Positions 5,395 through 26,359 of a stretch of DNA of 64,000 bases are shown piece by piece. The stretch lies in the IMG/VR virus record IMGVR_UViG_3300028591_000082. One strand, 5' to 3'. Under the pieces are notes generated by a model. It was not told where the DNA came from, did no database searches, and saw only the letters and a program-made list of their open reading frames with translations. Origin of the DNA: a virus (lineage: Duplodnaviria; Caudoviricetes). The position numbers and the translations under genes are program-made. Numbering within the stretch: the first letter of the stretch is position 1; each line of letters opens with the position of its first letter.

Positions 5395-5469
5395 TGGGGG
5401 TGACAGGATTTGAACCTGCAAGTCTTCTGCTTCGTAGGCAGATGCATTATCCAATTTTGCTACACCCTC
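5395..5469 (-). tRNA. tRNA-Arg(ACG)
   Basis: cloverleaf; anticodon arm TCTGC-CTACGAA-GCAGA. Confidence 0.9.
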
Positions 5470-5474
5470 ATTTA

Positions 5475-5546
5475 TCGGTCTAACCAGAATTGAACTGATA
5501 TCCACTCCTTAGGAGGGAGTTATTCTATCCGTTGAACTATAAACCG
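5475..5546 (-). tRNA. tRNA-Arg(CCT)
   Basis: ACTCC-CTCCTAA-GGAGT. Confidence 0.9.
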
Positions 5547-5888
5547 TTATATATTTATAAGTCTTCTATAATCTTTAGAAAAACTTATCATTTCATTACT
5601 CCAAGAAAAACCATGTATTATTCCTTTTTGTCTAGGGTTAAGTCCTTCGTCAGAAAAATAAATCTGATATCCGTATTTTATCCAATTTTTATCATAACTA
5701 TATGATTCACTTTTTTCTACTTTTTCTATTTTTAATTTTTTATCGCACATTTCTTCCATTACTTCGTTAACTCCAAACATGGCAGAATGAGTTTCAAAAA
5801 AATTTTTTGATCTTATGTAAACATATTTACCAATAATATCATTTTCGTTTATTACTAGTAATTCATGATCGTCATATTTAACAAACAT
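5547..5888 (-). CDS. hypothetical protein with RLINI tail (start revised to MFVKY)
   Basis: upstream extension in the ORF track overlaps tRNA-Gln. Confidence 0.7.
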   Translation of the reverse strand: MFVKYDDHELLVINENDIIGKYVYIRSKNFFETHSAMFGVNEVMEEMCDKKLKIEKVEKSESYSYDKNWIKYGYQIYFSDEGLNPRQKGIIHGFSWSNEMISFSKDYRRLINI

Positions 5889-5890
5889 AT

Positions 5891-5979
5891 TTCTAGGGGC
5901 GGGATTCGAACCTGCACTAGCCAAAAGAGGCTAACCAGCTCCAAAGGCTGGGGTGGTACCAATTACACTTTACCCTAGA
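5891..5979 (-). tRNA. tRNA-Gln(TTG) with long variable arm
   Basis: CCAGC-CTTTGGA-GCTGG; U1-A72; extra stem TAGCC-TCTTTT-GGCTA. Confidence 0.8.
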
Positions 5980-6182
5980 GTAATTTATTTTTTTATGAAT
6001 TCTTTTGGCATCCATTTACCTTCGTAGAATTCACAATGTTTTTTATTATCAAATATCAAACCATTGTTTGACATATATTTATAAGAGATTTTTTTATTCT
6101 TGTTTTTTACGATAATTACTTTCATCTCTTATATTATATCACGAAAATCATACTTAAACAGGGTGCATAAATTTTAGGCTTT

Positions 6183-6473
6183 TTAATAACAAGTTACTTC
6201 TTCGCTATATTGTGTAGTACGTTCAACCCCGTCGGTATTTGTACATGTTATAACCGTTGGATTTGTAGGAAAATCTTTATCTTTGTAATATATTAGCTCT
6301 TGTGGATTAAGAGGCCATGATATTGGATGTGGAGGGAAAACAACGGGTTCTTCAACATTTAATTTTTCTAATTTTTTTATTAAAATAAGTTTTGTGTCAT
6401 TATCTAAATTAGATTCCATAATCTTTTTTTCGAGTTCATCCGTTTTCCCGTCTTTAATAATTTCCTGCATCAT
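6183..6473 (-). CDS. hypothetical protein
   Basis: AAGGAG RBS. Confidence 0.65.
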   Translation of the reverse strand: MMQEIIKDGKTDELEKKIMESNLDNDTKLILIKKLEKLNVEEPVVFPPHPISWPLNPQELIYYKDKDFPTNPTVITCTNTDGVERTTQYSEEVTCY

Positions 6474-6484
6474 ATAATATCTCC

Positions 6485-7069
6485 TTATTTAACTTCAAGA
6501 CCATATTCGTTATATTTATTCAAATTCATAAGTATTCTATTATCATTCATAAAATCTTTGTATGACTTTCTGAAAGTATCAAAAAACCCAGGTTCAAAAC
6601 AAATATTGTTTTCATACTCTCTAACAACAGTATTACAAATTCTTTCTATGTTATTTGGATTACAAGAAAAACCAGTTGGAGATTCTACACAAATACCTCC
6701 GTCATTTGTCATAAATACAAATCCACACCAGCCAAGTTCATCTATTTTAACAAAATCTTTTGTATATATTGGTTTTCCATTTATATCAACTACTCCAGTA
6801 TATGCAACTACAGAGTCAAATGGAGCAATTCTATCATTAATAAGCACTCCATTTTTTTTATATTTAATTTTATTTGCCAAACAAAATATTCCTATTCCAT
6901 CAAATATATATGATTTAAATCTTGGTTGATGTACTTCTTCTAATGGAACACCATATTTGCATTTTGACATAAAAGAAAAGCAAAGCTGTCCATAATCATC
7001 AACTAGAACATCATTGTATTTATTGCGTTCATACAATAAATGAAGTTTATTTTCGTAATTTAAAACCAT
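6485..7069 (-). CDS. YopX-like phage protein
   Basis: YTGVVDINGKPIYTKDFV resembles the YopX QyTGlkDknG.eIYegDIv motif. Confidence 0.55.
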   Translation of the reverse strand: MVLNYENKLHLLYERNKYNDVLVDDYGQLCFSFMSKCKYGVPLEEVHQPRFKSYIFDGIGIFCLANKIKYKKNGVLINDRIAPFDSVVAYTGVVDINGKPIYTKDFVKIDELGWCGFVFMTNDGGICVESPTGFSCNPNNIERICNTVVREYENNICFEPGFFDTFRKSYKDFMNDNRILMNLNKYNEYGLEVK

Positions 7070-7102
7070 AATTTATTATAATATTTTTAAATAATTTTGT
7101 AA

Positions 7103-7139
7103 ATAAAAAAAAGCCAAGACTATTAATAGTCTTGGCTAT
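7103..7139 (-). terminator. terminator closing tRNA block 1
   Basis: AGCCAAGACTA/TAGTCTTGGCT stem followed by a T run. Confidence 0.85.
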
Positions 7140-7141
7140 AG

Positions 7142-7212
7142 ACGCCCCTATGCGAATCGAACGCATCCTCTTGGTTTTGCAGACCAGTCACTACCCAGCA
7201 ATGTCAGGAGCG
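7142..7212 (-). tRNA. tRNA-Cys(GCA)
   Basis: loop CTGCAAA, U73; atypical D arm. Confidence 0.75.
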
Positions 7213-7325
7213 ATATTCCTACTCCGAAAAAGGCGCTGCACTCTTCGTCGGTTCGTTCTACTATAATTACAGGCAACTCTAGTGGTGCAGTGACCTGCTT
7301 CGTATATAGCGTCATTTTTCACTAG

Positions 7326-7398
7326 TGTGCCATAAGAGAGTTGAACTCTTTCTTGAAACTCCACAGGTTTCCGTGCAAAACCGTTACACTAATGGTAC
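7326..7398 (-). tRNA. tRNA-His(GTG)
   Basis: GAAAC-CTGTGGA-GTTTC. Confidence 0.85.
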
Positions 7399-7400
7399 AG

Positions 7401-7474
7401 TCGACAAGGTGGGATTCGAACCCACACAATTCACATTTTGAGTGTGACACGTATTCCAGTTCCATCACTTGCCG
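7401..7474 (-). tRNA. tRNA-Leu(CAA), short variable loop
   Basis: TCACA-CTCAAAA-TGTGA. Confidence 0.85.
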
Positions 7475-7481
7475 AAAAATA

Positions 7482-7553
7482 TTCCTCCGCTAGGATTCGA
7501 ACCCAGAACGATGCATTCAGAGTGCAATGTGTTACCAATTACACCACGGAGAA
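7482..7553 (-). tRNA. tRNA-Gln(CTG)
   Basis: TTGCA-CTCTGAA-TGCAT. Confidence 0.9.
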
Positions 7554-7554
7554 G

Positions 7555-7628
7555 TGAGCTCAAATGGAATTGAACCATCAACCCACGCCTTAAAAGGGCG
7601 TTGCTCTAACCAGTTGAGCTATGAGCCC
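7555..7628 (-). tRNA. tRNA-Lys(TTT)
   Basis: ACGCC-CTTTTAA-GGCGT. Confidence 0.92.
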
Positions 7629-7669
7629 ATATAGTAAGCGTTGCTTCGAAGACTCTACTTACTTTTTAG

Positions 7670-7743
7670 TCAGCCCGCTGGGATTTGAACCCAGAACCTT
7701 GTGCTTAAGAGGCACTCGCTCTACCAAGTTGCGCTACGAGCCG
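7670..7743 (-). tRNA. tRNA-Lys(CTT)
   Basis: GTGC-CTCTTAA-GCAC. Confidence 0.92.
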
Positions 7744-7750
7744 ATAATAG

Positions 7751-7825
7751 TGAACGACTGGGGAATTGAACCCCAAACCCCATGCTTAAAAGGCACGTGC
7801 TCTAACCAGGTTGCGCTAGTCGTCC
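7751..7825 (-). tRNA. tRNA-Lys(TTT)
   Basis: CGTGC-CTTTTAA-GCATG. Confidence 0.92.
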
Positions 7826-7888
7826 ATAGAATCAAATGTTTGTTCCATTTAACTGGGCACCTTCAATTCCAATGGACTGAGTTGAAGG

Positions 7889-8056
7889 TTATGCCCTCTG
7901 TTTCTCTTTCATTTGTTTACTAAATTCCTCTAAACGCTTTTTGCGTTTTTCTTCTCTAGATTCTTTACTGTTGCGAGCTTCAAGTGAAGACTTTATCATA
8001 GCCTCATATACTTTTTTAGCCATAGGGCCTTCTACTCTTGGTGCTCCACAATCCAT
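7889..8056 (-). CDS. small basic protein (start revised to MDCGAP)
   Basis: AAGGAG RBS; extension in the ORF track overlaps tRNA-Met. Confidence 0.55.
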   Translation of the reverse strand: MDCGAPRVEGPMAKKVYEAMIKSSLEARNSKESREEKRKKRLEEFSKQMKEKQRA

Positions 8057-8073
8057 AAAAATCTCCTTATTGC

Positions 8074-8145
8074 TGATGGGTAGAAGGATCGAACTTCTTT
8101 CAAACGGATATGAGCCGCTTATAATAACCATTATACTAACCCACC
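8074..8145 (-). tRNA. tRNA-Met(CAT), elongator (Ile2 not excluded)
   Basis: AGCGG-CTCATAT-CCGTT. Confidence 0.8.
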
Positions 8146-8152
8146 ATAATAG

Positions 8153-8225
8153 CCCAGACTCTAGGACTCGAACCTAGAACCATCTCGTCTTCAGCGAGCG
8201 GCGCTGCCAATTGCGCTAAGTCTGG
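8153..8225 (-). tRNA. tRNA-Phe(GAA)
   Basis: CTCG-CTGAAGA-CGAG. Confidence 0.85.
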
Positions 8226-8232
8226 ATATTAG

Positions 8233-8305
8233 TCCGCACTGAAAGAATCGAACTTTCGTTAATGGATTTTCAGTCCACCACCTTGACCACGTCGGTTAAA
8301 TGCGG
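8233..8305 (-). tRNA. tRNA-Phe(GAA)
   Basis: GTGGA-CTGAAAA-TCCAT. Confidence 0.85.
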
Positions 8306-8310
8306 ATAAT

Positions 8311-8382
8311 TACTGCGTATAGGAGTCGAACCTATCTAAGCCGTCTTGTAAGGGCGGAGTACAACCGATGTACCAACGCAGT
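8311..8382 (-). tRNA. tRNA-Val(TAC)
   Basis: CCGCC-CTTACAA-GACGG. Confidence 0.88.
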
Positions 8383-8389
8383 ATAAAAT

Positions 8390-8473
8390 AAAAAAGGCTT
8401 AGGAGTTAACCTAAGCCTATAATTCCACAATTAAACTATACGATTATGTCATATAGTTATGAACATAGGCTTA
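8390..8473 (-). terminator. attenuator 1: terminator plus mutually exclusive antiterminator
   Basis: terminator AGGCTTAGG-TTAACT-CCTAAGCCT-T5; TAAGCCTAT (8473-8465) can pair instead with ATAGGCTTA (8420-8412). Confidence 0.8.
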
Positions 8474-8541
8474 CTATGCTTAAACAACATACAATGTTTC
8501 TGTGAGAAAAATTTAAACTGTTTCACGAATTTCTTCAACAT
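8449..8541 (-). CDS. leader peptide 1, MLKKFVKQFKFFSQKHCMLFKHSKPMFITI
   Basis: AGGAG RBS; 30 codons; 21 of the first 22 are read by tRNAs of the downstream block. Confidence 0.8.
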   Translation of the reverse strand: MLKKFVKQFKFFSQKHCMLFKHSKPMFITI

Positions 8542-8570
8542 AGTAAACTCCTATAAAATTATCTTTATAT

Positions 8571-8644
8571 ATGCTCTGCAGGATTCGAACCTGCGTTGCC
8601 GCAAAAAATGCAGCTCAAGACTTTGACCTCTCGTCCAAGAGCAT
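8571..8644 (-). ncRNA. tRNA-like RNA without a canonical anticodon arm
   Basis: ATGCTCT/AGAGCAT acceptor; GCAGG-TTCGAAT-CCTGC T arm. Confidence 0.55.
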
Positions 8645-8665
8645 TACCTTTTTAATAAGGGGGAA

Positions 8666-8754
8666 CGGAGAGTACTGGATTCGAACCAGTGGAATCCCTT
8701 ACGAAACTCAACACCTTAGCAGGGTGCCGCTATCGACCACTCAGCCAACTCTCC
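8666..8754 (-). tRNA. tRNA-Ser(GCT)
   Basis: GCACC-CTGCTAA-GGTGT; long variable arm; G73. Confidence 0.92.
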
Positions 8755-9123
8755 AAAATTTTAATATATTTTTTTGGGTTACTGTAGCAGTCAGCCCAAT
8801 CTATTCTTAATTCCTTATAACCCTCTTCTAAAAGAAGAGAATCTTTTCTTTTGTCACAATCTTTTTGGTAATGCAATCTGCTGCATTACCATAAAATTCA
8901 AAAAAATTGATAAGGGTAAGCATTAACCTTATCTTCTCGACATATAGGTAATGAGTCACACTACCAAATATTATGCTTTAATAGTACGATACTATTTAGA
9001 CCCTAATGCTTTCAGGGAAGCACTAATAAACCCTTGCATTATTTATAGTAATACAAGAAACTAGAAACCATGTTTAATGCTCGGTTCCTTTCGTCAGCCA
9101 CCATCTCCCGATGGAATTTTTTA

Positions 9124-9196
9124 TTTCGGGGGTAGGATTCGAACCTACATAACGCGGGTTATGAGCCCGTGAACTAGCCATTAGTGATACCCCGAG
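9124..9196 (-). tRNA. initiator tRNA-fMet(CAT)
   Basis: GGG/CCC in the anticodon stem; C1xA72 mismatch. Confidence 0.88.
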
Positions 9197-9204
9197 TCGT
9201 AAAA

Positions 9205-9278
9205 AGTTGTAAATCGGATTTGAACCGACGACCTCGTCCTTGGCAAGGACACGCTCTAACCAACTGAGCTACTACAAC
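9205..9278 (-). tRNA. tRNA-Gly(GCC)
   Basis: TGTCC-TTGCCAA-GGACG; U73. Confidence 0.92.
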
Positions 9279-9281
9279 ATA

Positions 9282-9476
9282 TTAAAAACGATATCCGACA
9301 CAAACAAAAAAGTCAATAATATTTGAAATTCTGTCACACTCAAAATATCTTATTGCTTTACCGTTTTTTATCATACGGATAACTTGGTAGACATTAAATT
9401 TCTTATTGGGAAATTTATCTGCCCTATAAACAACATCTTTGAAATAATTCAAAGTTCTCAAATTATTAAAAAGCAT
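9282..9476 (-). CDS. hypothetical protein
   Basis: 64 aa; AGGGGA RBS. Confidence 0.5.
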   Translation of the reverse strand: MLFNNLRTLNYFKDVVYRADKFPNKKFNVYQVIRMIKNGKAIRYFECDRISNIIDFFVCVGYRF

Positions 9477-9488
9477 ATTTTCCCCTGC

Positions 9489-9767
9489 TTAATTAAATAT
9501 TTTTATAATATCAGAAACAAGTTCTGCTTTCTCTTTTCCAAAGATTTCGATAACTTCTTGTGGCAATTTTGCCTCTAATTCGATAAGACTGAAAGTTGTT
9601 TTATCGTCTTTATGAATTTCAACTTCCTTCTTGGTCATTCCAGCCTTTCGCATCTCTTTCCAATGATTTGCTGCATTAAGTCTATTGAACTGACCATTTT
9701 CGTCTTTTTCTAAATTATAGAGAAGATGACAAATTTCTTTGTTTGAAAGTTTCTCGGTTTCTAACAT
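9489..9767 (-). CDS. hypothetical protein
   Basis: follows the box promoter at 9814. Confidence 0.7.
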   Translation of the reverse strand: MLETEKLSNKEICHLLYNLEKDENGQFNRLNAANHWKEMRKAGMTKKEVEIHKDDKTTFSLIELEAKLPQEVIEIFGKEKAELVSDIIKIFN

Positions 9768-9828
9768 TTTTACTTCCTTCTATATATATTATACACCGAA
9801 AAACTGAATTCAGCAGGGTGCAAATTTT

Positions 9829-10299: not shown

Positions 10300-10319
10300 A
10301 AAATTAACTTTTTTAAATA

Positions 10320-11215
10320 AAGGCGAATATTTCGTCATTCGCATATGTTAGCGACTGCCCAAGTCCATCTTAACAAAACGCATTGGCTTCACTTTTCTCC
10401 ACTCTAGGCACCACAAGTAAGAGCCCCCAATGTTGTTTAGCATGTCTACCTTTGACAGTAGCAAGCACGACAATCCGTGCTCCACACTATGTTGGCTTTC
10501 AAGGAACTATCATAGGAATTATCTAGAATACCACACTTTCATTCCTTGCGTTAATTAACAATTCAACCAACAGAATTTGTTTTCCATTTCCGAATTACTT
10601 GGGAAACAACCTCTTTATCCGAAGACGAGAGGTTAGTATACAGGGTATTAAGGAGTCGAACCTTAACACGCCAAAACGCCTCAAGCAAGCTTGAAACACC
10701 TCGGCAACCACTTACCCTTACCATTTGCAAACAAGCTATACAATAATGTATTTAACCATTGCTGGCTTACAGAGGCTTACTGTAAATTAAGCTTGTCGAA
10801 TACCTTTTGTGCCAACCGAGTTGGCTACTGTGGTTGTTGATCTAATCTCACACAGCTTTTAATACCAAGAGTTTTCTGTCAGTTCAATAAAAGAACCTAT
10901 TGAAGTGGTATATTGGTAAACTCTTAACCGTTATTTGGCTTTCACGCTCTCTGTTTCAAGTACCACAGACATTGAGCTTTTGGAATGAGGAACTTCCTCA
11001 TGTTGCCACATAAACTTCAAACTTGCTTGCTATCCGATTTCCACGGACTACTAAACGCAATAGTTATGATCATAGGTATTCACGCCACCTTAGAATTTCC
11101 GACGGGTGTTTAGAACTTTTCCTTGTTCAATGGCGTAAATTTTATTTCTTTACGCAAGAATATATAAAGTTAGCCATTGGCACCGTTCACCAACATGATT
11201 AAGCTGCCTAGCATC
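10320..11215 (-). ncRNA. candidate large (~900 nt) structured ncRNA (copy B) with embedded tRNA-like domain at 10641-10718
   Basis: no ORF; many long-range helices (GCAAGCAAGTT/AGCTTGTTTGC, GAATACCT/AGGTATTC, CTGTGGT/ACCACAG, AAGAGTTT/AAACTCTT). Confidence 0.55.
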
Positions 11216-11217
11216 TG

Positions 11218-11379
11218 TTAAGGCTCCTTAGCACTAACTTCATTTCTAAATCCATAATAGTCAGCATATAAAGCCCACCATTCCTCTAAAGTTTTCTTTT
11301 GTTTTCTATATCGTAAATAGAAAAAGGCTCCAACTTCATGCTTCAAATCTTTTTCAAATTCCTTAATAGAAACTTCCAT
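11218..11379 (-). CDS. small hypothetical protein (53 aa, MEVSIKEFEKD...)
   Basis: translated by hand; below the ORF-track cutoff. Confidence 0.5.
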   Translation of the reverse strand: MEVSIKEFEKDLKHEVGAFFYLRYRKQKKTLEEWWALYADYYGFRNEVSAKEP

Positions 11380-11410
11380 TTATGTAAAATCGTTCCTATT
11401 AAGTAACTTT

Positions 11411-11484
11411 TAGTTCCTTGTGGGTTTGAACCACAGACCTTTCGGTTATCAGCCGAATGCTCTAACCAGCTGAGCTAAGGAACT
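11411..11484 (-). tRNA. tRNA-Ile(GAT)
   Basis: TTCGG-CTGATAA-CCGAA. Confidence 0.92.
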
Positions 11485-11539
11485 ATATACGGGCTGTTAA
11501 GAAGTCAAATCTTCCAAATAGCCGACAGACCAATAATGA

Positions 11540-11643
11540 CGGGGAACGCCTGAATCGAACAAGGCACCTCAAAAATCTCTCATCAATGAATTACAGAGCA
11601 AGACATCAACAAGAGTAGCGTACTACCATTATACGAATTCCCC
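11540..11643 (-). ncRNA. tRNA-like RNA with a 12-bp stem replacing the anticodon arm
   Basis: GGGGAAT/GTTCCCC acceptor; D arm CGTA/TACG; TTCGATT T loop. Confidence 0.55.
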
Positions 11644-11888
11644 AAAAAAACATACTACTTGCCAAAGTAGTTTCAGATGCAGGTGTTGCATCCGTTGATT
11701 ACCGAGAAAATCCTTATCGGACTGCACTGGATTCCAACTTGTCACCAATAACTCAACTTAACGCTCGTCAAGCCTAGTGCCCAGCCTTTCGGGGTACCTT
11801 GGGACGTCTCCCTCAAAACGGTACTTACTACGATTATCTACTTTCTCAGTCAAAGGTTGTCGTCCTGGCAACATCAACTAATGTTTAG

Positions 11889-11960
11889 CGGGCTCTGCTG
11901 GAGTCGAACCAGCCCACGCAGATTAACAGTCTGCAGTACTAACCGATATACGAAAAGCCC
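11889..11960 (-). tRNA. tRNA-Asn(GTT)
   Basis: GCAGA-CTGTTAA-TCTGC. Confidence 0.92.
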
Positions 11961-12154
11961 AAAAACTGCGATGTTGTGGCTATCCGCCTGCCTTTATCAT
12001 GTCTGCAAATTTCCCTGAGTTAAATTTGCTTTATTTAGGTGGAATGAGAACCACCACTACCTTTACAGGGTAGCACGCACAGTCTAATTCGTCAAACTAC
12101 TTTAAGCGCTATTTTCATTTAACTACTACCTGGCGACTTGTTAAATGCGATTCG

Positions 12155-12228
12155 TCTGTATGGTAGGATTCGAACCTACGGAATCTTGCTCCCAAAGCAA
12201 GTGGATTAGACCGCTCTCCCACACACAG
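12155..12228 (-). tRNA. tRNA-Pro(TGG)
   Basis: CTTGC-TTTGGGA-GCAAG. Confidence 0.9.
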
Positions 12229-12394
12229 ATAGCTAATTGCAAAATACTATATAGCTCATAATAATGTACATTTATGCCCGCAGTTTCGAGATTAATCCTA
12301 AGTCAGTACTATTCTTCCCAACTCGTATAGTTCGTCACACTTAGAAACAAATTAAGCGGCTATGAACTACTTCTCCCATATTTTGCAATTATAG

Positions 12395-12466
12395 AGCCTC
12401 CACTAGGAATCGAACCCAGATTCCGAGATTACAAATCACGTGTACTAACCGTTATACGATAGAGGC
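12395..12466 (-). tRNA. tRNA-Thr(TGT)
   Basis: CGTGA-TTTGTAA-TCTCG. Confidence 0.85.
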
Positions 12467-12555
12467 ATATTTGGTGAACCTGATTTCAGACTTCCCACCA
12501 AGAAGCCGCGATTTCAGACAGAACAGAGCACGCTTCAGATCAATCTCTGTCGTCG

Positions 12556-12636
12556 TGGAAGATATCAGAATTGAACTGATCTTTACTCGTCCCTTCCATT
12601 GTAGGCTTTAAGACGAGCCTCACCATAAGATCTCCC
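12556..12636 (-). ncRNA. tRNA-like RNA with enlarged anticodon domain
   Basis: GGGAGAT/ATCTTCC acceptor; ATCAG-TTCAATT-CTGAT T arm; CTCGTCTT/AGGGACGAG stem. Confidence 0.5.
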
Positions 12637-12639
12637 AAA

Positions 12640-12888
12640 TTATATATAAGTTCCTCTTTTAAAAGGAAGTTTAACATCTATATGTTCAGCAATAAGAGCA
12701 GCTTCTCCTAAATGCCCAACTACTCTTATTTCGGAAAACCTTTTTGCTTTATCTTTAAGGCATTTTGGAACTTCCACAGTAAAAGTTCCTTTTTTCTCGC
12801 CATCAATATCATAGCAAAGTGATATTTTATCGCCTTCTACATTAACAACTTTTCCTTCCAAAATAAAAGAATTAAGATTTCTTCTCAT
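12640..12888 (-). CDS. short SSB-like OB-fold protein
   Basis: NLNSFILEG...IRVVGHL...IAEHID resembles short SSB paralogs (recalled from spirochaetes, not searched). Confidence 0.5.
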   Translation of the reverse strand: MRRNLNSFILEGKVVNVEGDKISLCYDIDGEKKGTFTVEVPKCLKDKAKRFSEIRVVGHLGEAALIAEHIDVKLPFKRGTYI

Positions 12889-12889
12889 A

Positions 12890-12962
12890 TAGTCCCGAGA
12901 GGAGTTGAACCTCCGTCTCCTCCTTGAAAGGGAGGCGATACTAACCGTTGATCTACGGGACC
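12890..12962 (-). tRNA. tRNA-Glu(TTC)
   Basis: CCTCC-CTTTCAA-GGAGG. Confidence 0.9.
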
Positions 12963-13032
12963 ATAAAACCCTTTTGAGACCAGAAGCACCGCGAAAAGTC
13001 CGCGCCTTACGCTCACAGATCTCTGAGGGTTA

Positions 13033-13105
13033 CATTCCTTGCAGGAATTGAACCTTGCGTTTGTTGCTTGAGAGGCAACTGTCCTTACCATTAGACGAAA
13101 GGAAC
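13033..13105 (-). tRNA. tRNA-Glu(CTC), bulged T-stem
   Basis: GTTGC-CTCTCAA-GCAAC. Confidence 0.8.
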
Positions 13106-13112
13106 ATAAGAA

Positions 13113-13206
13113 TTACCAACTTAAGGACTTGAACCCTAATCCCGCGCCCCTTTTTCCCGCGACCCCACACGGATTTGCTGTCCTTTAGTGAGATCGTTTA
13201 TCGGTA
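13113..13206 (-). ncRNA. tRNA-like RNA (acceptor and T arm only recognisable)
   Basis: TACCGAT/GTTGGTA; TTAGGG-TTCAAGT-CCTTAA. Confidence 0.4.
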
Positions 13207-13384
13207 CTAGGGGGCACTGTGCCCTGTACACCACTTGATAATGAGCTTCCAAAATTAGCCAGCTTCGCTACAGAAACTCCAGTTGTTTCGTTTGCAACCG
13301 AAAAACAACCTTTTTACATACTTTTTATTCGTAAGTATCAAAACGAGTTAGTTTCCGATTTACTTAAACTAACAAATAAGGTGA

Positions 13385-13457
13385 CGGTCTGTGCGAGAGT
13401 TGAACTCGCCATCTCCGCAGTGACAGTGCGGCGTGATAACCGATACACTAACAGACC
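13385..13457 (-). tRNA. tRNA-Asp(GTC)
   Basis: CCGCA-CTGTCAC-TGCGG. Confidence 0.92.
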
Positions 13458-13475
13458 ATAAAATCATTTCTTTTA

Positions 13476-13547
13476 TATCCCAACTAGGATTCGAACCTAG
13501 ATCTCCACTCTTAACGAGCAGAATGCTAACCGTTACACCATTGGAAC
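13476..13547 (-). tRNA. atypical tRNA, nominal anticodon TTA
   Basis: full cloverleaf; loop CGTTAAG (G33, possible C32-G38 pair). Confidence 0.55.
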
Positions 13548-13806
13548 AACCTAAACTAGTAAGAGGGTTAACGCGTATTTCTCTTAGTCGGCTTGAGCAG
13601 GGAAAAGAAAATATGCTCGTGCCTACTAGTTTGGTAGTTAATTAGTCACGCAGACGGCATTTGCCGACACTTCTGGTTTGCCAACTACCTATGCTCACGG
13701 ACTCTAACCGTTTCTTAGTGCATTGAAGTTACAAGTAAGTTTTCCTTACTCTTATATTATACACCGTAAATCTGAATTTAACAGGGTGCATAATTTTTTG
13801 GTTTCG

Positions 13807-13880
13807 TGGAGCGGGGGAGCATCGAACTCCCAACCTCATGATTGCAAATCACGTATTCTAGCCAATTGAACTACCGTCCC
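13807..13880 (-). tRNA. tRNA-Ala(TGC)
   Basis: G3-U70; loop TTTGCAA. Confidence 0.9.
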
Positions 13881-14036
13881 AAATAAAGTGATCTTTTGGT
13901 ATCATACATACAGATACATTATAGCAGGTAATCACATTGAGTTTTTGCAATACAAACAAAAACAACCTTTAGTTCATGTAGTTAGACTTCTACCAACTAA
14001 TCTCGTTCTCCTAGTGTCTAATTCAAACGAGCGGCT

Positions 14037-14125
14037 CGGTTGGATGGAGAATCGAACTCCAGCTACGCTCATCACGCAGGACAATTTTCAAGATTGCTAC
14101 CCATGCCAACTAGGTGTTCCCAACC
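14037..14125 (-). tRNA. tRNA-Ser(TGA)
   Basis: GCAAT-CTTGAAA-ATTGT; long variable arm. Confidence 0.85.
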
Positions 14126-14211
14126 ATTATTCAAACAAAAGAACCTAGTAAAGCATCACGGTACCATTGCAACAATGCATAACGACTTATATACTGATCC
14201 CTTTGTTTTAA

Positions 14212-14293
14212 TGGGCAGTGGAGGACTCGAACCTCCAAGGCACAAAGGCGACAGGGTTACGGCCTGCTCAGCTACCATTACTGTCAACTACCC
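14212..14293 (-). tRNA. tRNA-Tyr(GTA)
   Basis: GCAGG-CCGTAAC-CCTGT (C33). Confidence 0.85.
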
Positions 14294-14602
14294 ATAATGT
14301 CCGATGCGGAGTAGCCGCTTTAAAGGCGCTCGTTGTACACGCACCTAGCTTGCAAGGTCTGGGTTGTTATTCAAAACAGATAGTAATTAGGATTTCTACT
14401 ATCACCTTTACTGGTAGGTACAAGCCGCTAAACTTGCAGTCCTCGCCTTGGCAGTTCTCGGGAAGAGGAGTGCCCCCTTAACCCGCATACTTTTAGTAAC
14501 TACTGCTTAAATTTTCTCTTTAGTTTTTTAACCTTGACATAAGCCAAGGTAGGCTAGACTATCCCTACTCGCTTAGCCTAGCTGGGTCAGAACACACCCG
14601 TT

Positions 14603-14848
14603 TTAGTCAAAATAATACCAATCACCTCTCGGTGAAGGTAAACCTTTTAAGAGATATCTTTCAATCTCTTCGTCTGTACAATCTATAGAAATTTTATTTA
14701 ATTCAGATTTCTGTAGATTTCTTCTCTGCTTACGCTGTTCTGCATGAAAACCTACTACTGATCTTCTGTAGTAACGGTAAGTATATCTCTTTCTTCTTGT
14801 ACAACCACGAGTTCCGTGATCTTGCTTATTAGGTTTATTTTTATACAT
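14603..14848 (-). CDS. small Arg-rich basic protein
   Basis: ORF track; AAGGAG nearby. Confidence 0.6.
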   Translation of the reverse strand: MYKNKPNKQDHGTRGCTRRKRYTYRYYRRSVVGFHAEQRKQRRNLQKSELNKISIDCTDEEIERYLLKGLPSPRGDWYYFD

Positions 14849-14880
14849 AACCTAAGTCATAAGCAACTCCTTTAATTTAG

Positions 14881-14954
14881 TCGGCGTGAGAAGATTTGAA
14901 CTTCCACTTTACAGATTCTAAGTCTGCTCCCTCTACCAGTTGGGGTACACACCG
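14881..14954 (-). tRNA. tRNA-Leu(TAG), short variable loop
   Basis: GCAGA-CTTAGAA-TCTGT. Confidence 0.85.
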
Positions 14955-15042
14955 ATAATCACATTCGTTAGGTAGAATGTGGTAGACCACGCCATGCTTA
15001 CGAATGGCAATTATCCTTAGATACTTCCGTCTAAGTCGGATT

Positions 15043-15126
15043 TGCCAAGAGAGGGACTCGAACCCACAAACTCTTACGAGCACAGCCACCTCAAGGCTGC
15101 GTGTTTACCAATTTCACCATCTAGGC
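15043..15126 (-). tRNA. tRNA-Leu(GAG)
   Basis: CAGCC-TTGAGGT-GGCTG. Confidence 0.9.
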
Positions 15127-15194
15127 ATATAAAAGGGTAAAGCGTGTTAGGCTTCCCCTTAATGATTAAGCTCTTGGCAAAACCATCTCTCTTG

Positions 15195-15278
15195 TCGGCC
15201 TGGAGAGACTCGAACTCTCAATCCTTACGGCGTCCGATCTTAAGTCGGATGTGCATACCAAAATTCCACCACAGACCG
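15195..15278 (-). tRNA. tRNA-Leu(TAA)
   Basis: TCCGA-CTTAAGA-TCGGA. Confidence 0.9.
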
Positions 15279-15335
15279 AAAAATAATGAACGACTTCTAA
15301 TACTGGAAGGAAGTCTAGCAGACGCACAGGACAAT

Positions 15336-15392
15336 AAAAAAGGCTTCTGAGTTTTAACATCAGAAGCCTTAGAATTCGAAATTAAGACTTCT
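15336..15392 (-). terminator. attenuator 2: terminator plus antiterminator
   Basis: terminator AAGGCTTCTGA/TCAGAAGCCTT-TTTT; AGAAGTCTTA, starting at the leader stop, can pair instead with TAAGGCTTCT. Confidence 0.8.
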
Positions 15393-15487
15393 CATGTTAG
15401 ATATGGTTCGTCTGCATCATTATATAATGATGTTGCGAGAGAATTAAGAGAAATAATAGAACTGTAAGTAATAATATTCTTTTCCAT
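15392..15487 (-). CDS. leader peptide 2, MEKNIITYSSIISLNSLATSLYNDADEPYLT
   Basis: TAAGGT RBS; lies between a consensus promoter and the attenuator; codons match downstream tRNAs. Confidence 0.8.
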   Translation of the reverse strand: MEKNIITYSSIISLNSLATSLYNDADEPYLT

Positions 15488-15529
15488 ATCTATACCTTAT
15501 ATTTATATTTATCTTTACGCTATAGAAAA

Positions 15530-15558
15530 ATTATAACATTAAAAAATAAAAATGTCAA
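15530..15558 (-). promoter_or_regulatory. consensus sigma70 promoter
   Basis: TTGACA-17 nt-TATAAT with TG extension; the same class occurs at ~21482-21510, 24633-24661, 63757-63785, 63873-63901. Confidence 0.85.
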
Positions 15559-16216: not shown

Positions 16217-16290
16217 TGGCGCTGACAGGGCTCGAACCTGCATAAATCTGATTAGAAGTCAGAGTGGCATCCAGTTGCCTACACAGCGTC
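16217..16290 (-). tRNA. tRNA-Arg(TCT)
   Basis: TCTGA-CTTCTAA-TCAGA. Confidence 0.88.
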
Positions 16291-16502
16291 AAAAAAGCCA
16301 AACCTCCTACTTGCCGCCCCCTCGTGTTTATACTCACGAATTATTCAAGGACTTATCGCAGATCCTATAAAGTGCGCACGGATCCGCGGGGTTAATCAGG
16401 TCTGTTCCTCAAAAGTGCCGAGCACTCTCTTGAATGCGACCCTGTTCTACACTTGGCTTACATTTATAAGGAATTGTTCTAGAATTTTCCATATAAACAT
16501 AG

Positions 16503-16573
16503 AGGTTCAGGTGGGAGTCGAACCCACATTTCCGACATACTCGTCAGCGTTCTTACCATTAAACTACTCAACC
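16503..16573 (-). tRNA. tRNA of undetermined identity (6-nt anticodon loop GAGTAT)
   Basis: good D and T arms; defective anticodon loop. Confidence 0.5.
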
Positions 16574-16678
16574 ATAAGAAGGGCTCATTTTAATCACCAC
16601 AGTGTCATTGCCCTTCGCCCATATATTTATACTGCGTTGTGGCTCTTTGCAGTTTATAAGTAGACTTGCTACTCATAG

Positions 16679-16752
16679 TCCTCCCAGATGGAATTGCACC
16701 ACCGACCAACGGCTTATAAGGCCGCTGCTACTAACTGCTGAGCTATGGGAGG
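16679..16752 (-). tRNA. tRNA-Ile(TAT)
   Basis: GCGGC-CTTATAA-GCCGT; T loop TGCAATT. Confidence 0.8.
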
Positions 16753-16845
16753 AAAAAATTAACTTCCTTATATATATATTATACACCCTAAAACTAAGTT
16801 TAACAGGGTGCATAAATTTTTGGTTTCAAAAACAAATAATAAGGT

Positions 16846-18342: not shown

Positions 18343-18348
18343 TAGGTT

Positions 18349-18657: not shown

Positions 18658-18681
18658 TTTATTCTCCGTATATTTAATGTA

Positions 18682-19051
18682 TGGAGGTGCCGAGATTCGA
18701 ACTCGGGTCTTCACCAATTACTATATTAAACACTTCTATACAGGCTTAAAGTCATATTATTGCTTGGAATGACTAATACCATAAAATCTTTAACCTTATC
18801 ATTTAGCCAAAGGATTTGCAGACTTTGATCGCTAAACTATTCCGTTCGTTTACACGCCTTCTAACATCTATAACAGAAAGGAACTGTAAGAAGACGGCTA
18901 GGCTCACGCAGTCCTAGCAAGTTTGAGGTGCTTACGCAGCCATCAAAACTTCTTCGTAGTCGTTGTCGATTACTTTTTTGCCATTTCAAACCATGACTGG
19001 TTATGTACCTGATGTTCAATTTTTCATTGTGAATCGATACCGTTCACCCCC
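18682..19051 (-). ncRNA. ssrA: tmRNA; tag (A)GKKVIDNDYEEVLMAA
   Basis: 5' GGGGGTGAACGGTATCGA; 3' GAAGACCCGAGTTCGAATCTCGGCACCTCCA (G3-U70); internal tag frame ending LMAA-TAA. Confidence 0.93.
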
Positions 19052-19402: not shown

Positions 19403-19406
19403 AATA

Positions 19407-19932: not shown

Positions 19933-20068
19933 ATTTTTACCCTCGAAATAATTTGTGTAGTGTAGCCACCACCGCGAAGCGTATATACACAAAATGACCC
20001 TTGCTTTAACAAGGGTCATTTTTAAATGCGACTAATTTAATGCTAAGTGAGAAATCTGTTTTGCAAGA

Positions 20069-21160: not shown

Positions 21161-21195
21161 AAAAACGAATACCTCCTTTTTTGATATAAATTTTC

Positions 21196-21270
21196 CATTC
21201 CCTGCAGGAGTTGAACCGTACATCTTAGTCCTGAGAAGACTTTGTCCTATATCCGTTAGACGAAGGGAAC
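21196..21270 (-). tRNA. tRNA-Glu(CTC), bulged T-stem
   Basis: loop TTCTCAG. Confidence 0.75.
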
Positions 21271-21372
21271 ATAAACATAACCCTTTCAAAACATACGACG
21301 GATCACTAGAAAACCTTGCCAGGCAAGGGAAAGCATTACTTCCTCCCCGTACTAGTCTCTGAGGGTTAATGA

Positions 21373-21445
21373 CATTCCTTGCAGGATTTGAACCGTGCTT
21401 TTATTGCCTGAGAAGCAATCGTCCTAGCCATTAGACGAAAGGAAC
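21373..21445 (-). tRNA. tRNA-Glu(CTC), bulged T-stem
   Basis: ATTGC-TTCTCAG-GCAAT; identical to the copies at 22022 and 22346. Confidence 0.8.
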
Positions 21446-21561
21446 ATAAAAATTTTTTTGATTTTTTGTTGTTATACTTAAATTATAACATGAAATATGA
21501 TTTTTGTCAAGTTCGTTACCAAACTTTATGTGAAATATTTTTTGATTTTTTTCATAATTTC

Positions 21562-21634
21562 CATTCCCTGCAGGAATTGAACCGTACATCATTTGCCTGA
21601 GAAGCAACCGTCCTTACCATTAGACGAAGGGAAC
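21562..21634 (-). tRNA. tRNA-Glu(CTC), bulged T-stem
   Basis: loop TTCTCAG. Confidence 0.78.
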
Positions 21635-22021
21635 ATAAAACTGATAGTTTATCGGTCACTATCAAACGAGTAATGTTTTTTTAACGGTACAAAACACCAC
21701 CAAGAAGACAATTACTGCCATACCAGCCAGCAGTAAACATATACTGTATTGCTGGTACATACAGCAACGACGGCTTTACTATTATAAAGGCTGAAGCTAA
21801 GCCTACCTATCATTTATGTCGTAGTAGGTGACGAAGATATTTAATCTAGAATATCCCAAGAAGGTATTTTGACCTGAAATACCCAAAACAGGACTTGCTG
21901 TCGTTAGTCCACGGATTTTTAAAGGGTTAACTCCCGACCTCTTTTTTAAGTGGTTGTTCCCACTTCTTTTCTAAATCTTTTTTGAGAGCAGAACCCTCTA
22001 AAAGATATTTTATAAAAAAGA

Positions 22022-22094
22022 CATTCCTTGCAGGATTTGAACCGTGCTTTTATTGCCTGAGAAGCAATCGTCCTAGCCATTAGACGAAAGGAAC
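22022..22094 (-). tRNA. tRNA-Glu(CTC), bulged T-stem
   Basis: identical copy. Confidence 0.8.
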
Positions 22095-22345
22095 ATAAAA
22101 CCCTTTTGAAACCAAACGCAAGATCACGGGTCTAAGCATAAGTGACCTCCCTTGCAAATCTCTAAGGGTTTAAATTGTAAGCCTTTAACGATTAAAACTT
22201 ACTAAAACGGTTAGCCTGTTTTTATACAGTCCCTACTTCATTGACTGCCCAGTTTTACGCAAACCTGTCGACATTTGGGAGCTTGCAACTTTTTGTTTTC
22301 GATCGAAAAGTAAAACGCCATTTTTTAACAGAAATGATAACTTTT

Positions 22346-22418
22346 CATTCCTTGCAGGATTTGAACCGTGCTTTTATTGCCTGAGAAGCAATCGTCCTAG
22401 CCATTAGACGAAAGGAAC
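22346..22418 (-). tRNA. tRNA-Glu(CTC), bulged T-stem
   Basis: identical copy. Confidence 0.8.
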
Positions 22419-22975
22419 ATAAAATCGCAAGTACTGTACACATACTCGCTTGTGGGCAATCCCATTGTATAGTCGGTCTACCACCATTATGTCTACTGTA
22501 AATCTCAAATCAGTTACCGATACAAATTTTCATGTTATCAAATTTGTTAAAGTTAGCCCAAACCGTACTTGGACAGTCAGCAAGCCATTCCTCTAATAAA
22601 GCACTTAATAGCTTCGTTAAGCCTGACATTTAGTGAGTGTCTTAGGACACCATTGTCAATGGCATCCTTGCTGTCTTTTTTTGTTTTCTCTAATTTCATA
22701 ATTTGCAGGATATTCTATATAATGTTACCAACGAACTTTCTTCATAATGAAACTCCTTTAGTGTATTTTAAAAAGACAGTTTCGAGTCAAAAGCAAATGA
22801 AAATAATAGAATTGCCCAAACTCTAACTGTCTTTTATTTTTCTTTTTTCAATCGCTTTCGCTAAGGATGCCTTACTGTGAGATTGTCCCTTAGGTACTTA
22901 CTTGCTGAACTAGGTTTTAATACCCTGTACTACCTAACAGCCATAAAACCGTTTCCAATTAAATGTACAAATTCA

Positions 22976-23048
22976 AGCACCATGTCGGGCTCGAACCGAC
23001 GACATTCTGCTTGGAGGGCAGACACGCTACCAACTGCGTTAATGATGC
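22976..23048 (-). tRNA. tRNA-Gly(TCC)
   Basis: TCTGC-CCTCCAA-GCAGA (C33); U73. Confidence 0.88.
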
Positions 23049-23896
23049 AAAAGACTTGCTTTTTTTGAAACTACTAAAGCATATGCTACCATGGACTGAC
23101 GGTTCAAGTTTCGGAATAGAACCTCTAACGAAGCCCTGAGTCCTACAGCACTCACGAATTACCACTCGTAGTCTGCAAAAGTAATCTCTAAAAAGCAATT
23201 TGTTGGTTTCAACTTACGAAACCAACAAAGCTCACCATATTTAAATGGAACGATTCACACCGTTGGTGAACAGTCGATACACCATCTTTGCAATTAAGAA
23301 ATTGCATTGATCTATACCGTCTTTTAGGACTTCGTCATACTGCAATATGACTTGTAGTTTCTTTTCTGGCTTAAAAACCACCAAACATAAACCCATCTAG
23401 TTAAGCGTTAGATGTAAACTCGGTTTTTATACAACATTAAAAAACTTAAAAAAACTTAGTCTTACTTGCAAAACAACTTGCAGACTGAGTTGCTACATAA
23501 GACCCACTCGCAAAAGATTTACATGAGGGGAGGCGTTCTCTCTCCTGCGAGTGGCGTGGCAATATCAAAAACCACATTGGGAGCCTTCAGATAACCCACA
23601 ACAGCTCCTCGCTTCCTATGTCACACCGTCGGTTAGTGTGGAGGGTTTTAGCATAACGATTTATTATCGTCGGTGTAAAGAATTCTTCGCACCTATATTA
23701 TACACTCCGAAAACTAATAAAAGCAGAGTGTAAATTTTCAACCACAAAAAAAGTGAATTTCGATTTAACGGTTCTATTTCATATTTCTTCATTACTAACT
23801 CCAGTCAGTAATATTTTTTCTCATTCCCTTATACTAATATTATACCACGAAAATATCAGTTGAACAGGGTGTAAAAATTTTTGGTTTAGAAATTTA

Positions 23897-24589
23897 CTAG
23901 TAATCGAAGAACTTCTTATCTTCGAGAATAATCTCGCCCGAAGTTTCCCTAGCCCTTCTTTCAGCAAATGAAGATGCTGGAGGGTTGAAGTAAATTTCTT
24001 CTTCAAGAGCAGAAAATCTTTTTAGTTTTCCTGCATCTACTTTTTTAGGATTATTAAAATCTGTATAATACTTTTCTGTAGCTTCTTTTGCTGCTCTTGC
24101 GATCTTTAAATTTTCCTTAAAAGTAGTAACAGTCTTCCCATTTCTATCTGCCCAAATTGGTTTTTCACCAGGCTTCTTAAAATAGAAAGAGTACTGATTA
24201 TATTTTTTTGTAAGTGCCTTACCAAACTCAAAAATTTTGTTTATATCTAAGGCTTTTCCGTCTTTCCCAGAATTATAAACAATCATTGATGTTTCGCCTG
24301 GTACAGAAACTTTCTTGCCATCTATTTCTTCAAGAGAACCACCATAAACAGGAGTAAATGTATAACCAGCCTTATGAATATCAGACTGAAGTTCTCTTGT
24401 TTTTTGCTTATTTATTGTCTTGTTATTTTCGGGATTTTTTTCGTCCCAATCTTCACGACAAGCAGATATAATTATGTATCCATTTTTTTCGTGAACATTC
24501 AAAAGACGATCAATTTTGTCTTCATTTAATGTATAGGAAACAGGACTTTTTGTTGCTTCATTGAGATTAACATAATTTTCATTATTCAT
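23897..24589 (-). CDS. hypothetical phage protein
   Basis: 230 aa; AAGGA RBS; sigma70 promoter at ~24633-24661. Confidence 0.75.
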   Translation of the reverse strand: MNNENYVNLNEATKSPVSYTLNEDKIDRLLNVHEKNGYIIISACREDWDEKNPENNKTINKQKTRELQSDIHKAGYTFTPVYGGSLEEIDGKKVSVPGETSMIVYNSGKDGKALDINKIFEFGKALTKKYNQYSFYFKKPGEKPIWADRNGKTVTTFKENLKIARAAKEATEKYYTDFNNPKKVDAGKLKRFSALEEEIYFNPPASSFAERRARETSGEIILEDKKFFDY

Positions 24590-24903
24590 AATAATTATCC
24601 TCTTTCCCTTTAACTTCGTTCCTTATACTAATATTATACAATATTAGTAAAATTTTGTCAAGTTCAAAATAAGTAAAAGTAGGAAGTCAGCCTGAGTTAC
24701 AACAAGGATTTGTCATAACTATCTGTCTGCAGCCCACGGGTTCCTTCCCTTGTGCGACTTTTACTATCGAAACCGTCCGATAGAGGTGGGGTATTATCGG
24801 ACGACCGAAGGACATCGGTTTGTAGCCTACAGATAACCAACAACAGCTACACCTTTTCGATAACCGTGGCTAAAGCCACGGTGATGGTTTTAGGAGGGAC
24901 AAG

Positions 24904-25371
24904 TTAAGCAGCATTTACTGCAATAACAGTACCGTCTTTCTTTTCGATAGAAACAAGTTTACGATACTGAATATATCTTTTACCTGCTTCTCCATTTGCA
25001 GTAGGATAATCCTCTGTGAACTCAACTGTAATTGAGTTTTCACCGAGCTTCTGAACTGGGCGAGTAAATTCTCTTGCGAATTTTCCAGTTCCCATAACGA
25101 ATGTTACTTCATCACCTACTTCAAGCTTGCTTGCAAGTTCACGACCAAGTTTTGTTGCGGCTTCACGAGCGGCATCAGCAGCAGCCTTTGCTTCAGCTTC
25201 AATCTGAGCCTTGAGATTTTTCTTCTCTTCGTTAAGCTGTTCAAGAACTCCCTTGAGAATTGCAACATTTACTTTGTCGCTGTCACCTTTGATCAAGCCC
25301 ATTGTCTTATCAACGATTTCGTTAACAACTTTCTTTGACTCTGGCTGGAGAGCATCATAAGTTTTTTTCAT
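24904..25371 (-). CDS. coiled-coil plus KOW/SH3-like protein, paralog 1 of 4
   Basis: VGDEVTFVMGTGKFARE...RYI motif shared with 46049, 47842, 52484. Confidence 0.8.
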   Translation of the reverse strand: MKKTYDALQPESKKVVNEIVDKTMGLIKGDSDKVNVAILKGVLEQLNEEKKNLKAQIEAEAKAAADAAREAATKLGRELASKLEVGDEVTFVMGTGKFAREFTRPVQKLGENSITVEFTEDYPTANGEAGKRYIQYRKLVSIEKKDGTVIAVNAA

Positions 25372-25513
25372 AAAAGTTTTCCTACCTAAGTAAACTTAGG
25401 ATTTTAATAAAATATTAAAAGACTAACAGTCCTATGTTTTCCTTACATATATTATATCACGAAAATATCATTTCGGCAGGGTGCAAAATTTTTAAGCACT
25501 TTTTATACTGTAA

Positions 25514-25714
25514 CTAAAAATCTTTGCCTTTATTTTTTACTGGTAAAGATTCAAAAGTACTTTTATCAACCCATTCTGGTAAAGTATCTATTACATTTTG
25601 TGCTTCTTCTTTTGAATAGCGAGAAGCGTAATCAGGATTTCCAATCCAACCATCACCAATGGTTTCACTTCTATACAAACCATGTGCTTTGTCATGTACT
25701 ATAAATAATTGCAT
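25514..25714 (-). CDS. hypothetical protein
   Basis: box promoter at 25771; GGGGG RBS. Confidence 0.6.
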   Translation of the reverse strand: MQLFIVHDKAHGLYRSETIGDGWIGNPDYASRYSKEEAQNVIDTLPEWVDKSTFESLPVKNKGKDF

Positions 25715-25793
25715 ATTTGCCCCCAACTAATTTTCTTTACATATATTATAACACGAAAATCTGTTTTCAACAGGGTGCAAAATTTTTGGCTAC

Positions 25794-26021
25794 CTAGTAC
25801 CTAGGAGATTTTTCACCAAACTTATTTCTTACATATGTTGCTCTGTGAAAATCAAACCTTATAAAATAACGACCATCGTGATCTTTCACTGGTTTATTAT
25901 CTTCAAAAGACATTTTTACTTGTATTGTTTTGGTTGGAACTTTGTAAATATTTCCAGCCTCAGACAAAACTTCAGAAACATCTTTTTTTCTTTCTAACAA
26001 AACACCATTTATTAAATACAT
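25794..26021 (-). CDS. hypothetical protein
   Basis: ORF track; possibly related to 31716-31982. Confidence 0.6.
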   Translation of the reverse strand: MYLINGVLLERKKDVSEVLSEAGNIYKVPTKTIQVKMSFEDNKPVKDHDGRYFIRFDFHRATYVRNKFGEKSPRY

Positions 26022-26031
26022 AATCGACCTA

Positions 26032-26286
26032 TTAAAGTTTGCTAATTACATCAATGTTGACAAAAACTCTATACGCATCAGCCTCAGAGTATTTTTCCAA
26101 AAGAGTTCTTTCATAAAAATCTCTAAGCTTTCTAAGAGTATCATTTGACATTTCACCTTTAATATTTCTGATATCAGAAATACCACCATTTATACTTGTT
26201 TCTTTAGAGCAAACTTTTCTGCTTTTGTTTGCTTTTGATTTTAAAAAAACAGTATAAGAAACTTTTATAAAATACTTGTTTTCCAT
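26032..26286 (-). CDS. hypothetical protein (start revised to MENKYF)
   Basis: extension in the ORF track overlaps tRNA-Trp. Confidence 0.6.
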   Translation of the reverse strand: MENKYFIKVSYTVFLKSKANKSRKVCSKETSINGGISDIRNIKGEMSNDTLRKLRDFYERTLLEKYSEADAYRVFVNIDVISKL

Positions 26287-26288
26287 AT

Positions 26289-26359
26289 CAGGCGCAGCTC
26301 GACTTGAACAAGCCTCAGTGGTTTTGGAGACCACGGCACAACCTCTATACCATACGCCT
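26289..26359 (-). tRNA. tRNA-Trp(CCA)
   Basis: GTGGT-CTCCAAA-ACCAC. Confidence 0.85.

Follow-up and report, generated by a model that had tools for sequence, protein, structure and literature searches.

A stretch of viral DNA of 64,000 nucleotides (nt; Duplodnaviria; Caudoviricetes; IMG/VR record IMGVR_UViG_3300028591_000082), hereafter the window, harbors about 40 transfer RNA (tRNA) genes and one transfer-messenger RNA (tmRNA), all on the minus strand. Two blocks of these tRNA genes are each preceded by a short open reading frame (ORF), the leader, whose codons are largely those read by the tRNAs of the block that follows, and by an intrinsic terminator with a predicted antiterminator. On the basis of the sequence and of folding models, it is very likely that these leader units are ribosome-stalling transcription attenuators, which would give feedback control of the phage tRNA blocks.

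Codon content of the leaders and the tRNA blocks

Anticodons were taken from ARAGORN, and decoding was assigned by standard wobble rules. Block 1 (7141..8383) consists of 11 genes, namely, Val, Phe (two), Met, Lys (three), Gln(CTG), Leu(CAA), His, and Cys, and is closed by a terminator at 7103..7137. Block 2 (11410..15278) consists of 13 sense genes, namely, Leu (three), Tyr, Ser(TGA), Ala, Asp, Glu (two), Thr, Pro, Asn, and Ile(GAT), among which the Tyr gene (14211-14294) was called at a relaxed threshold only. The blocks, leaders, terminators, and antiterminators of the window all lie on the minus strand. Block 2 also holds an odd tRNA call at 13475-13548 with an ochre-reading anticodon and an unusual loop, and similar calls occur in related uncultured phages (L007, 2474-2542; L146, 9690). 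It may be a suppressor or a mis-call; the stop codon of both window leaders is TGA.

Leader 1 (8449..8541) is an ORF of 30 codons with an AGGAG ribosome site at 8548-8552. Its codons 2–22 form the sensor, of which 20 of 21 are decoded by block 1, and codons 24–30, a tail of Ser, Pro, Ile, and Thr, make up the 5' arm of the antiterminator. Leader 2 (15392..15487) has 31 codons, and its exceptions are a Lys codon at position 3 and an AGT codon; the tRNA reading the latter, Ser(GCT) at 8665, belongs to neither block. The earlier note on this DNA had described the two codon sets as nearly disjoint. The sets are as it described them, except that it left out a single Ser codon (TCA, codon 13) within the sensor and the tail of leader 1, as well as the Lys and AGT codons of leader 2.

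When scored over the whole ORF, leader 1 had 23/29 codons read by its own block (0.79; binomial P = 3e-8 against window codon usage) and five by block 2 (0.17). Similarly, 28/30 codons of leader 2 were read by block 2 (0.93; P = 7e-6 against the same background) and one by block 1 (0.03). Each leader ranked first for its own block among 281 small ORFs of the window, whose means were 0.34 and 0.51, and when the amino acids were relabelled at random 200,000 times, the joint score of 52/59 was never reached. The concordance is thus far above that of random small ORFs and of swapped leader–block pairs, the two comparisons that the earlier note had named as its check. Its observation that neither leader contains Arg, Gly, or Trp was also confirmed (0 in 59 codons, P = 0.002). 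The match extends to synonymous codons: for Leu, leader 1 uses TTG and leader 2 uses CTN or TTA, and Gln appears as CAG only, the gene reading CAA being located outside the blocks. Among 66 informative codons from 11 units, 59 were in the form read by the block, against 40.4 expected (z 5.2).

Leader units in related and cultured phages

Relatives were found with the CCA-adding enzyme (3095..4489, minus strand; phrog_2244, E 1e-59) and neighboring genes as markers. Fourteen units were identified in seven related phages, counting that of the window, a sister phage (L007, L243, L264), L016, G003, G008, L001, and L005; the L005 unit is cut by the contig end and alone is not significant (P = 0.2). 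The partitions of the code differ among these phages, and leader content follows each partition. Ser belongs to the Asp/Asn block in the window and to the Lys/Phe block in both L016 and G003; in G003, Ala and Gln also switch sides, and the number of blocks is three in G008. In the relatives, gating of Gly, Arg, or Trp genes goes with the presence of the corresponding codons in the leader; there are a few exceptions, e.g., Trp and Gln in L016. For nine units, the table of tRNA in block against amino acid in leader (79/8/35/58) gave a Fisher P of 2e-14, although its cells are not independent.

The leaders of the sister phage are orthologous to those of the window and differ by insertions and deletions solely in multiples of three. 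Its block 2 includes Val along with two Gly genes. In its leader 2, Val codons occur three times and a Gly codon once, and this leader scores 33/37 on its own block against 29 on the block of the window. Its leader 1 sensor has no Val codon, with Met where the window has Val. A tRNA-like element at 8570-8644 immediately precedes leader 1 in the window, and the sister phage keeps its acceptor and T arms, the anticodon arm being different. The sister phage also carries DUF559 nuclease-like genes and an IS605-type element in or just after block 1 (L007, 816-1366; L264, 12217-16204).

Leader units were also present in cultured phages. Two occur in Caulobacter phage phiCbK, with scores of 37/44 (P = 1e-8) and 15/31 (P = 0.02), and three in Cellulophaga phage phi38:1, of which one scores 19/28 (P = 7e-7) and the others have P values of 0.02 and 4e-4. 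In both phages every leader scores highest on its own block, and the predicted switch depends on ribosome position, although in phiCbK the predicted fall in the cost of freeing the terminator arm is incomplete. The phiCbK terminators lie near 49769 and 51502, and the record of this phage annotates one of its units only as a hypothetical protein and a terminator. One candidate unit stands before the 28-gene tRNA array of Vibrio phage KVP40 (L277, 7918, minus strand); its ORF has 37 codons for 19 distinct amino acids (P = 0.015) and comes with a terminator as well as a strong predicted antiterminator. Since this array covers all 20 amino acids, concordance cannot test the candidate leader; the unit is possibly a single-channel version. 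A matched leader was not detected at the arrays of T5 and Bxz1 or of the uncultured G009, G012, G014, and G015, and these negatives are weak because the detector requires an ATG-initiated ORF and an intrinsic terminator. No close relatives came from single-protein scans of viral contigs or from megablast of cultured phages, two DNA-pattern scans returned 20 loci of which none had at least two tRNA genes, and no tRNA arrays were found at SPFH-gene neighbors (L240-L242) or CCA-enzyme neighbors (L147-L149).

These comparisons bear on the possibility that the leaders reflect chance or composition, being AT-rich small ORFs before ordinary terminators or genes for small trans-acting proteins. Small ORFs are indeed common in the window, as the 281 scored above show, and block 2 alone reads 56% of all codons. 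As far as chance is concerned, this explanation is refuted by the permutation and cross-phage tests, and peptide sequences are not conserved between phages while their composition tracks the tRNA set; its probability is negligible.

Predicted folds, promoters, and genomic setting

Terminator 1 (8385..8418) has nine pairs and a T run (-14.7 kcal/mol) and lies 12 nt ahead of tRNA-Val, and terminator 2 (15334..15371) has 13 pairs and a T run (-16.5 kcal/mol), about 60 nt ahead of the first Leu gene. The predicted antiterminator 1 (8410..8472) forms between the last part of the ORF on one side and the spacer plus the 5' arm of the terminator on the other; the sister phage retains it with different inner pairs. 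In the predicted antiterminator 2 (15356..15399), the stop-codon region pairs with the 5' arm of the terminator. With the ribosome edge modeled 12 nt beyond the start of the A-site codon, the predicted cost of freeing the terminator arm was 7–10 kcal/mol up to codon 18 in unit 1 and 15–16 kcal/mol up to codon 24 in unit 2, and nil at the stop codon in both. The switch point of unit 1, at about codon 21–23, coincides with the end of the codon match. In all 12 units tested, the predicted cost fell from 6–17 kcal/mol with the ribosome upstream to 0–3 at the stop. When 70 nt of upstream sequence were included, the 12 leader units gave values of -9 to -16 against 0 to -6 for ten other terminator-like hairpins of the window, so that the ranges separate. 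A hairpin is also predicted in the start region, yet it is compatible with the antiterminator.

Both window terminators start with AGGCTT and finish with AAGCCT and a T run. Hence, the earlier claim that the leaders have no other sequence in common does not hold, since the outer terminator stem is common to both units; the units are therefore not fully independent and may descend from one ancestor. The same note had pointed to TAAAGATAA before both leaders, and it is present at 8559..8567 and 15509-15517 on the minus strand. It carries no evidential weight, being at chance level: five copies occur in the window against 3.1 expected, and 6–17% of upstream pairs would share some 9-mer by chance. 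As a shared signal the motif was rejected, also because it differs by one base at leader 2 of the sister phage and is missing before nine other leaders.

A consensus sigma-70 promoter (15530..15558, minus strand; 12/12, extended TG) precedes leader 2, and its -35 box is retained in the sister phage. A different element, the box TGCACCCTG about 20 nt before TATAAT, occurs in more than 50 copies at 459-56566, densely at 46.5-56.5 kb, and from its sequence is a putative phage-specific promoter class replacing the -35 element. One such site, at 13782 (13755..13790, minus strand), lies inside block 2 between Ala and Asp. Another, at 9814 (9787..9822, minus strand), lies upstream of Gly(GCC), an initiator-type Met, and Ser(GCT), which agrees with the earlier placing of a box ahead of Gly(GCC). 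Judged by sequence, leader 1 has its closest clear promoter candidate in the box at 9814, with only a weak hairpin between them. A further motif, TACTAA, stands ahead of seven leaders in relatives (L016, L146, L151, L152, L005) and is likely a promoter element; the window leaders are without it.

The boxes raise the possibility that the units are real but now of small regulatory weight, the blocks being transcribed mostly from box promoters or through read-through, or the switch affecting just the timing of expression. This would agree with the sites at 13782 and 9814, with the box sites inside block 2 of the sister phage, and with the absence in the window of a strong terminator that would separate leader 1 from block 2, owing to which the two channels may be partly in series. 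Short contigs from within block 2 are also found at high depth in rumen RNA libraries, which is weak evidence; neither ends nor levels of transcripts can be read from contigs. Against this, 15 of 30 leader 2 codons still list tRNAs located downstream of the inner box, and the sister phage has its boxes at other places in block 2 while leader, fold, and frame are kept. We regard a small regulatory weight as very improbable.

The deepest long contigs of the rumen RNA libraries cover 10717-11140, 13571-13799, and 14445-14863 of the window, inside and after block 2, where there is little or no coding content. Their depth was 30–110, compared with about 7 in a run of unrecorded type, and no Rfam family fits these stretches; they are possibly abundant unknown RNAs.

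The remaining tRNA genes of the window lie outside both blocks, where the earlier note had placed them. Arg(ACG), Arg(CCT), and Gln(TTG) (5394..5979, minus strand) are ungated, without a preceding leader–terminator unit, and so are Arg(TCT) and Ile(TAT) (16217..16752, minus strand), downstream of a box promoter at 16804. Gly(TCC) (22976..23048, minus strand) has a terminator-like hairpin 186 nt upstream and no matched leader, and the Trp gene is at 26288..26360 (minus strand). The earlier list, though correct in its positions, omits Ser(GCT) at 8665, the initiator-type Met, and the Glu(CTC) tRNA-like copies. The latter, five to six in number and three of them nearly identical, are located at 21195-22419 and 46666-46738, and comparable scattered copies occur in the sister phage (L243). 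Irregular or enlarged anticodon arms were seen in tRNA-like sequences at 11535-11650, 12545-12640, 10641-10718, 16502-16573, and 36865-36936.

The window comes from a large rumen phage that has not been cultured: a 222,619-base contig encodes proteins matching three of its genes, and the stretch was detected in sheep and cattle gut RNA libraries. A weak hint at Treponema as the host comes from the top GTDB match of the marker, a Treponema bin (38%), and from a FlaA-family gene of the relative L001. Most block tRNA genes do not encode the CCA end. The CCA-adding enzyme, the tmRNA (18679-19051, with a tag ending in LMAA), and an RNA ligase gene (29484-30761) point to a translation-rescue kit.

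Proposed mechanism and relation to known systems

In the proposed mechanism, RNA polymerase would transcribe the leader with a ribosome trailing. When the tRNAs for the leader codons are plentiful and charged, the ribosome would reach the last codons and cover the antiterminator arm, the terminator would fold, and the block would be off. Slow decoding at any listed codon would make the ribosome lag, so that the antiterminator keeps the 5' arm of the terminator and transcription reads through into the block; the newly made tRNAs would then shut down their own synthesis. Each leader would operate as an OR gate for its set of 8 or 10 amino acids, 17 being covered jointly. We infer leader translation, its coupling to transcription, termination in vivo, and the trigger alike. 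The in-frame insertions and deletions between orthologous leaders are an indirect sign of leader translation. No match to PF00562 (RNA polymerase beta) was found in two complete relatives, a search that divergent phage polymerases may escape, and this together with the sigma-70 promoter would fit the use of host polymerase and coupling. The trigger is most likely tRNA loss in infection, e.g., by host anticodon nuclease cleavage; starvation would also work, and the single control codons suggest near-complete loss of a tRNA more than mild starvation.

Several observations weigh against attenuation. A few leader codons have no matching tRNA in the block, and several amino acids are represented by a single codon, as opposed to the runs of classical leaders. 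The block limits of the relatives were set after their leaders had been seen, and the background was the codon usage of the window. A promoter of its own was not identified for leader 1, for which the box at 9814 is a candidate, and from its sequence the box at 13782 may be a leader-independent input to the eight distal genes of block 2. Per-unit shuffle tests were modest, the fold being matched by 4/100 and 1/100 shuffles for the window units; the range was 0–9/100 in eleven units, with 57/100 in one relative. Antiterminator 1 (7–10 kcal/mol) is weaker than terminator 1, and hence the switch of unit 1 must be kinetic.

In most units the antiterminator is predicted to form even with the ribosome absent, so the block should be on when translation fails altogether. 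The units could accordingly be read as a general translation-stress switch that responds whenever translation fails, be it through ribosome damage, a shut-off of initiation, or antibiotics, the codon match serving only as tuning; toiL, an upstream ORF (uORF), likewise senses many stresses with one leader (PMC12121999). A general sensor, however, needs no codon match, yet the match reaches the synonymous level and follows the moves of tRNA genes. A general switch as the main function is therefore unlikely, and stress sensing can coexist with codon-specific attenuation as a second input.

The earlier note had proposed a two-channel surveillance of the host tRNA pool. Codon-matched sensing is supported, but what such a sensor registers is the speed of decoding and not just host tRNA. 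Because ribosome speed depends on host and phage charged tRNA and on amino-acid supply, the circuit would be a feedback loop and not a host-tRNA monitor. The number of channels is two in the window and is not fixed, with three in G008 and phi38:1. It is reasonably probable that the feedback system audits most of the genetic code, with the leaders as codon checklists that would detect selective tRNA loss (e.g., in anticodon-nuclease defense) and release only the needed block, their content being re-edited as tRNA genes move.

Leader-peptide attenuators of amino-acid operons include trpL, hisL, and leuL, and the multivalent thrL and ilvL. The output of the phage units is tRNA genes instead of biosynthetic enzymes or synthetases, and each leader covers 8–10 amino acids, often by single codons, in contrast to one to three amino acids, often in runs, in the amino-acid operon leaders. 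They also occur in phages, as a set dividing the code. Leader unit features evident from sequence or predicted fold are a leader with a ribosome site, cognate codons, an intrinsic terminator, and a mutually exclusive antiterminator; the promoter is clear for leader 2 and only a candidate for leader 1. No exclusive 1:2 protector or pause hairpin of the trp/his type was present in the predicted folds. The units are thus not of the trp/his four-segment type, as the antiterminator is predicted in most units even without a ribosome and the untranslated state would be on. The pheM leader of E. coli pheST provides attenuation by the level of charged tRNA for one amino acid and controls a synthetase; both systems govern a part of the translation machinery, the phage targets being tRNA genes for many amino acids. 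T-box riboswitches cause antitermination according to tRNA status by binding uncharged tRNA directly, without an ORF, and could not sense a destroyed tRNA. No Rfam T-box match was found in the window at the gathering threshold or at E up to 1.

In E. coli pheL, a short translated ORF precedes alternative antiterminator and terminator folds, and stalling on cognate codons leads to read-through (PMC3082878). The short ORF and the alternative folds are common to the phage units, for which read-through on cognate stalling is proposed. At E. coli topAI, a single uORF, toiL, responds to stalling at several sites (PMC12121999); unlike the phage units, it uses translational repression and Rho-dependent termination, senses antibiotics, and has a toxin–antitoxin target. 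The tRNA L-array of Anabaena PCC 7120 is supernumerary and induced under impaired translation (PMC8421152). It is cellular and without a codon-matched partition, and that report mentions neither attenuation nor a leader peptide. Phage tRNAs have been proposed to offset host tRNA depletion by anticodon nucleases (PMC10264068); that work deals with tRNA sequence and does not mention attenuation, and it suggests the likely trigger for the phage units. No description of leader-peptide attenuation of tRNA genes was found in the literature searched, which mostly excludes subscription journals. In all likelihood, the units represent a known mechanism, multivalent leader-peptide attenuation, with a new target, tRNA genes, and a new scope.

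For more than 50 years, the question of what phage tRNA arrays are for has stayed open (PMC10264068). With these units, the reach of attenuation would extend to tRNA genes and, within a single leader, to ten amino acids. Since phiCbK and phi38:1 are cultured, the idea is testable now, and the leaders could report which tRNAs a defense system destroys. Such a switch would make phage tRNAs an on-demand backup for shortage and not a constant supplement to codon usage.

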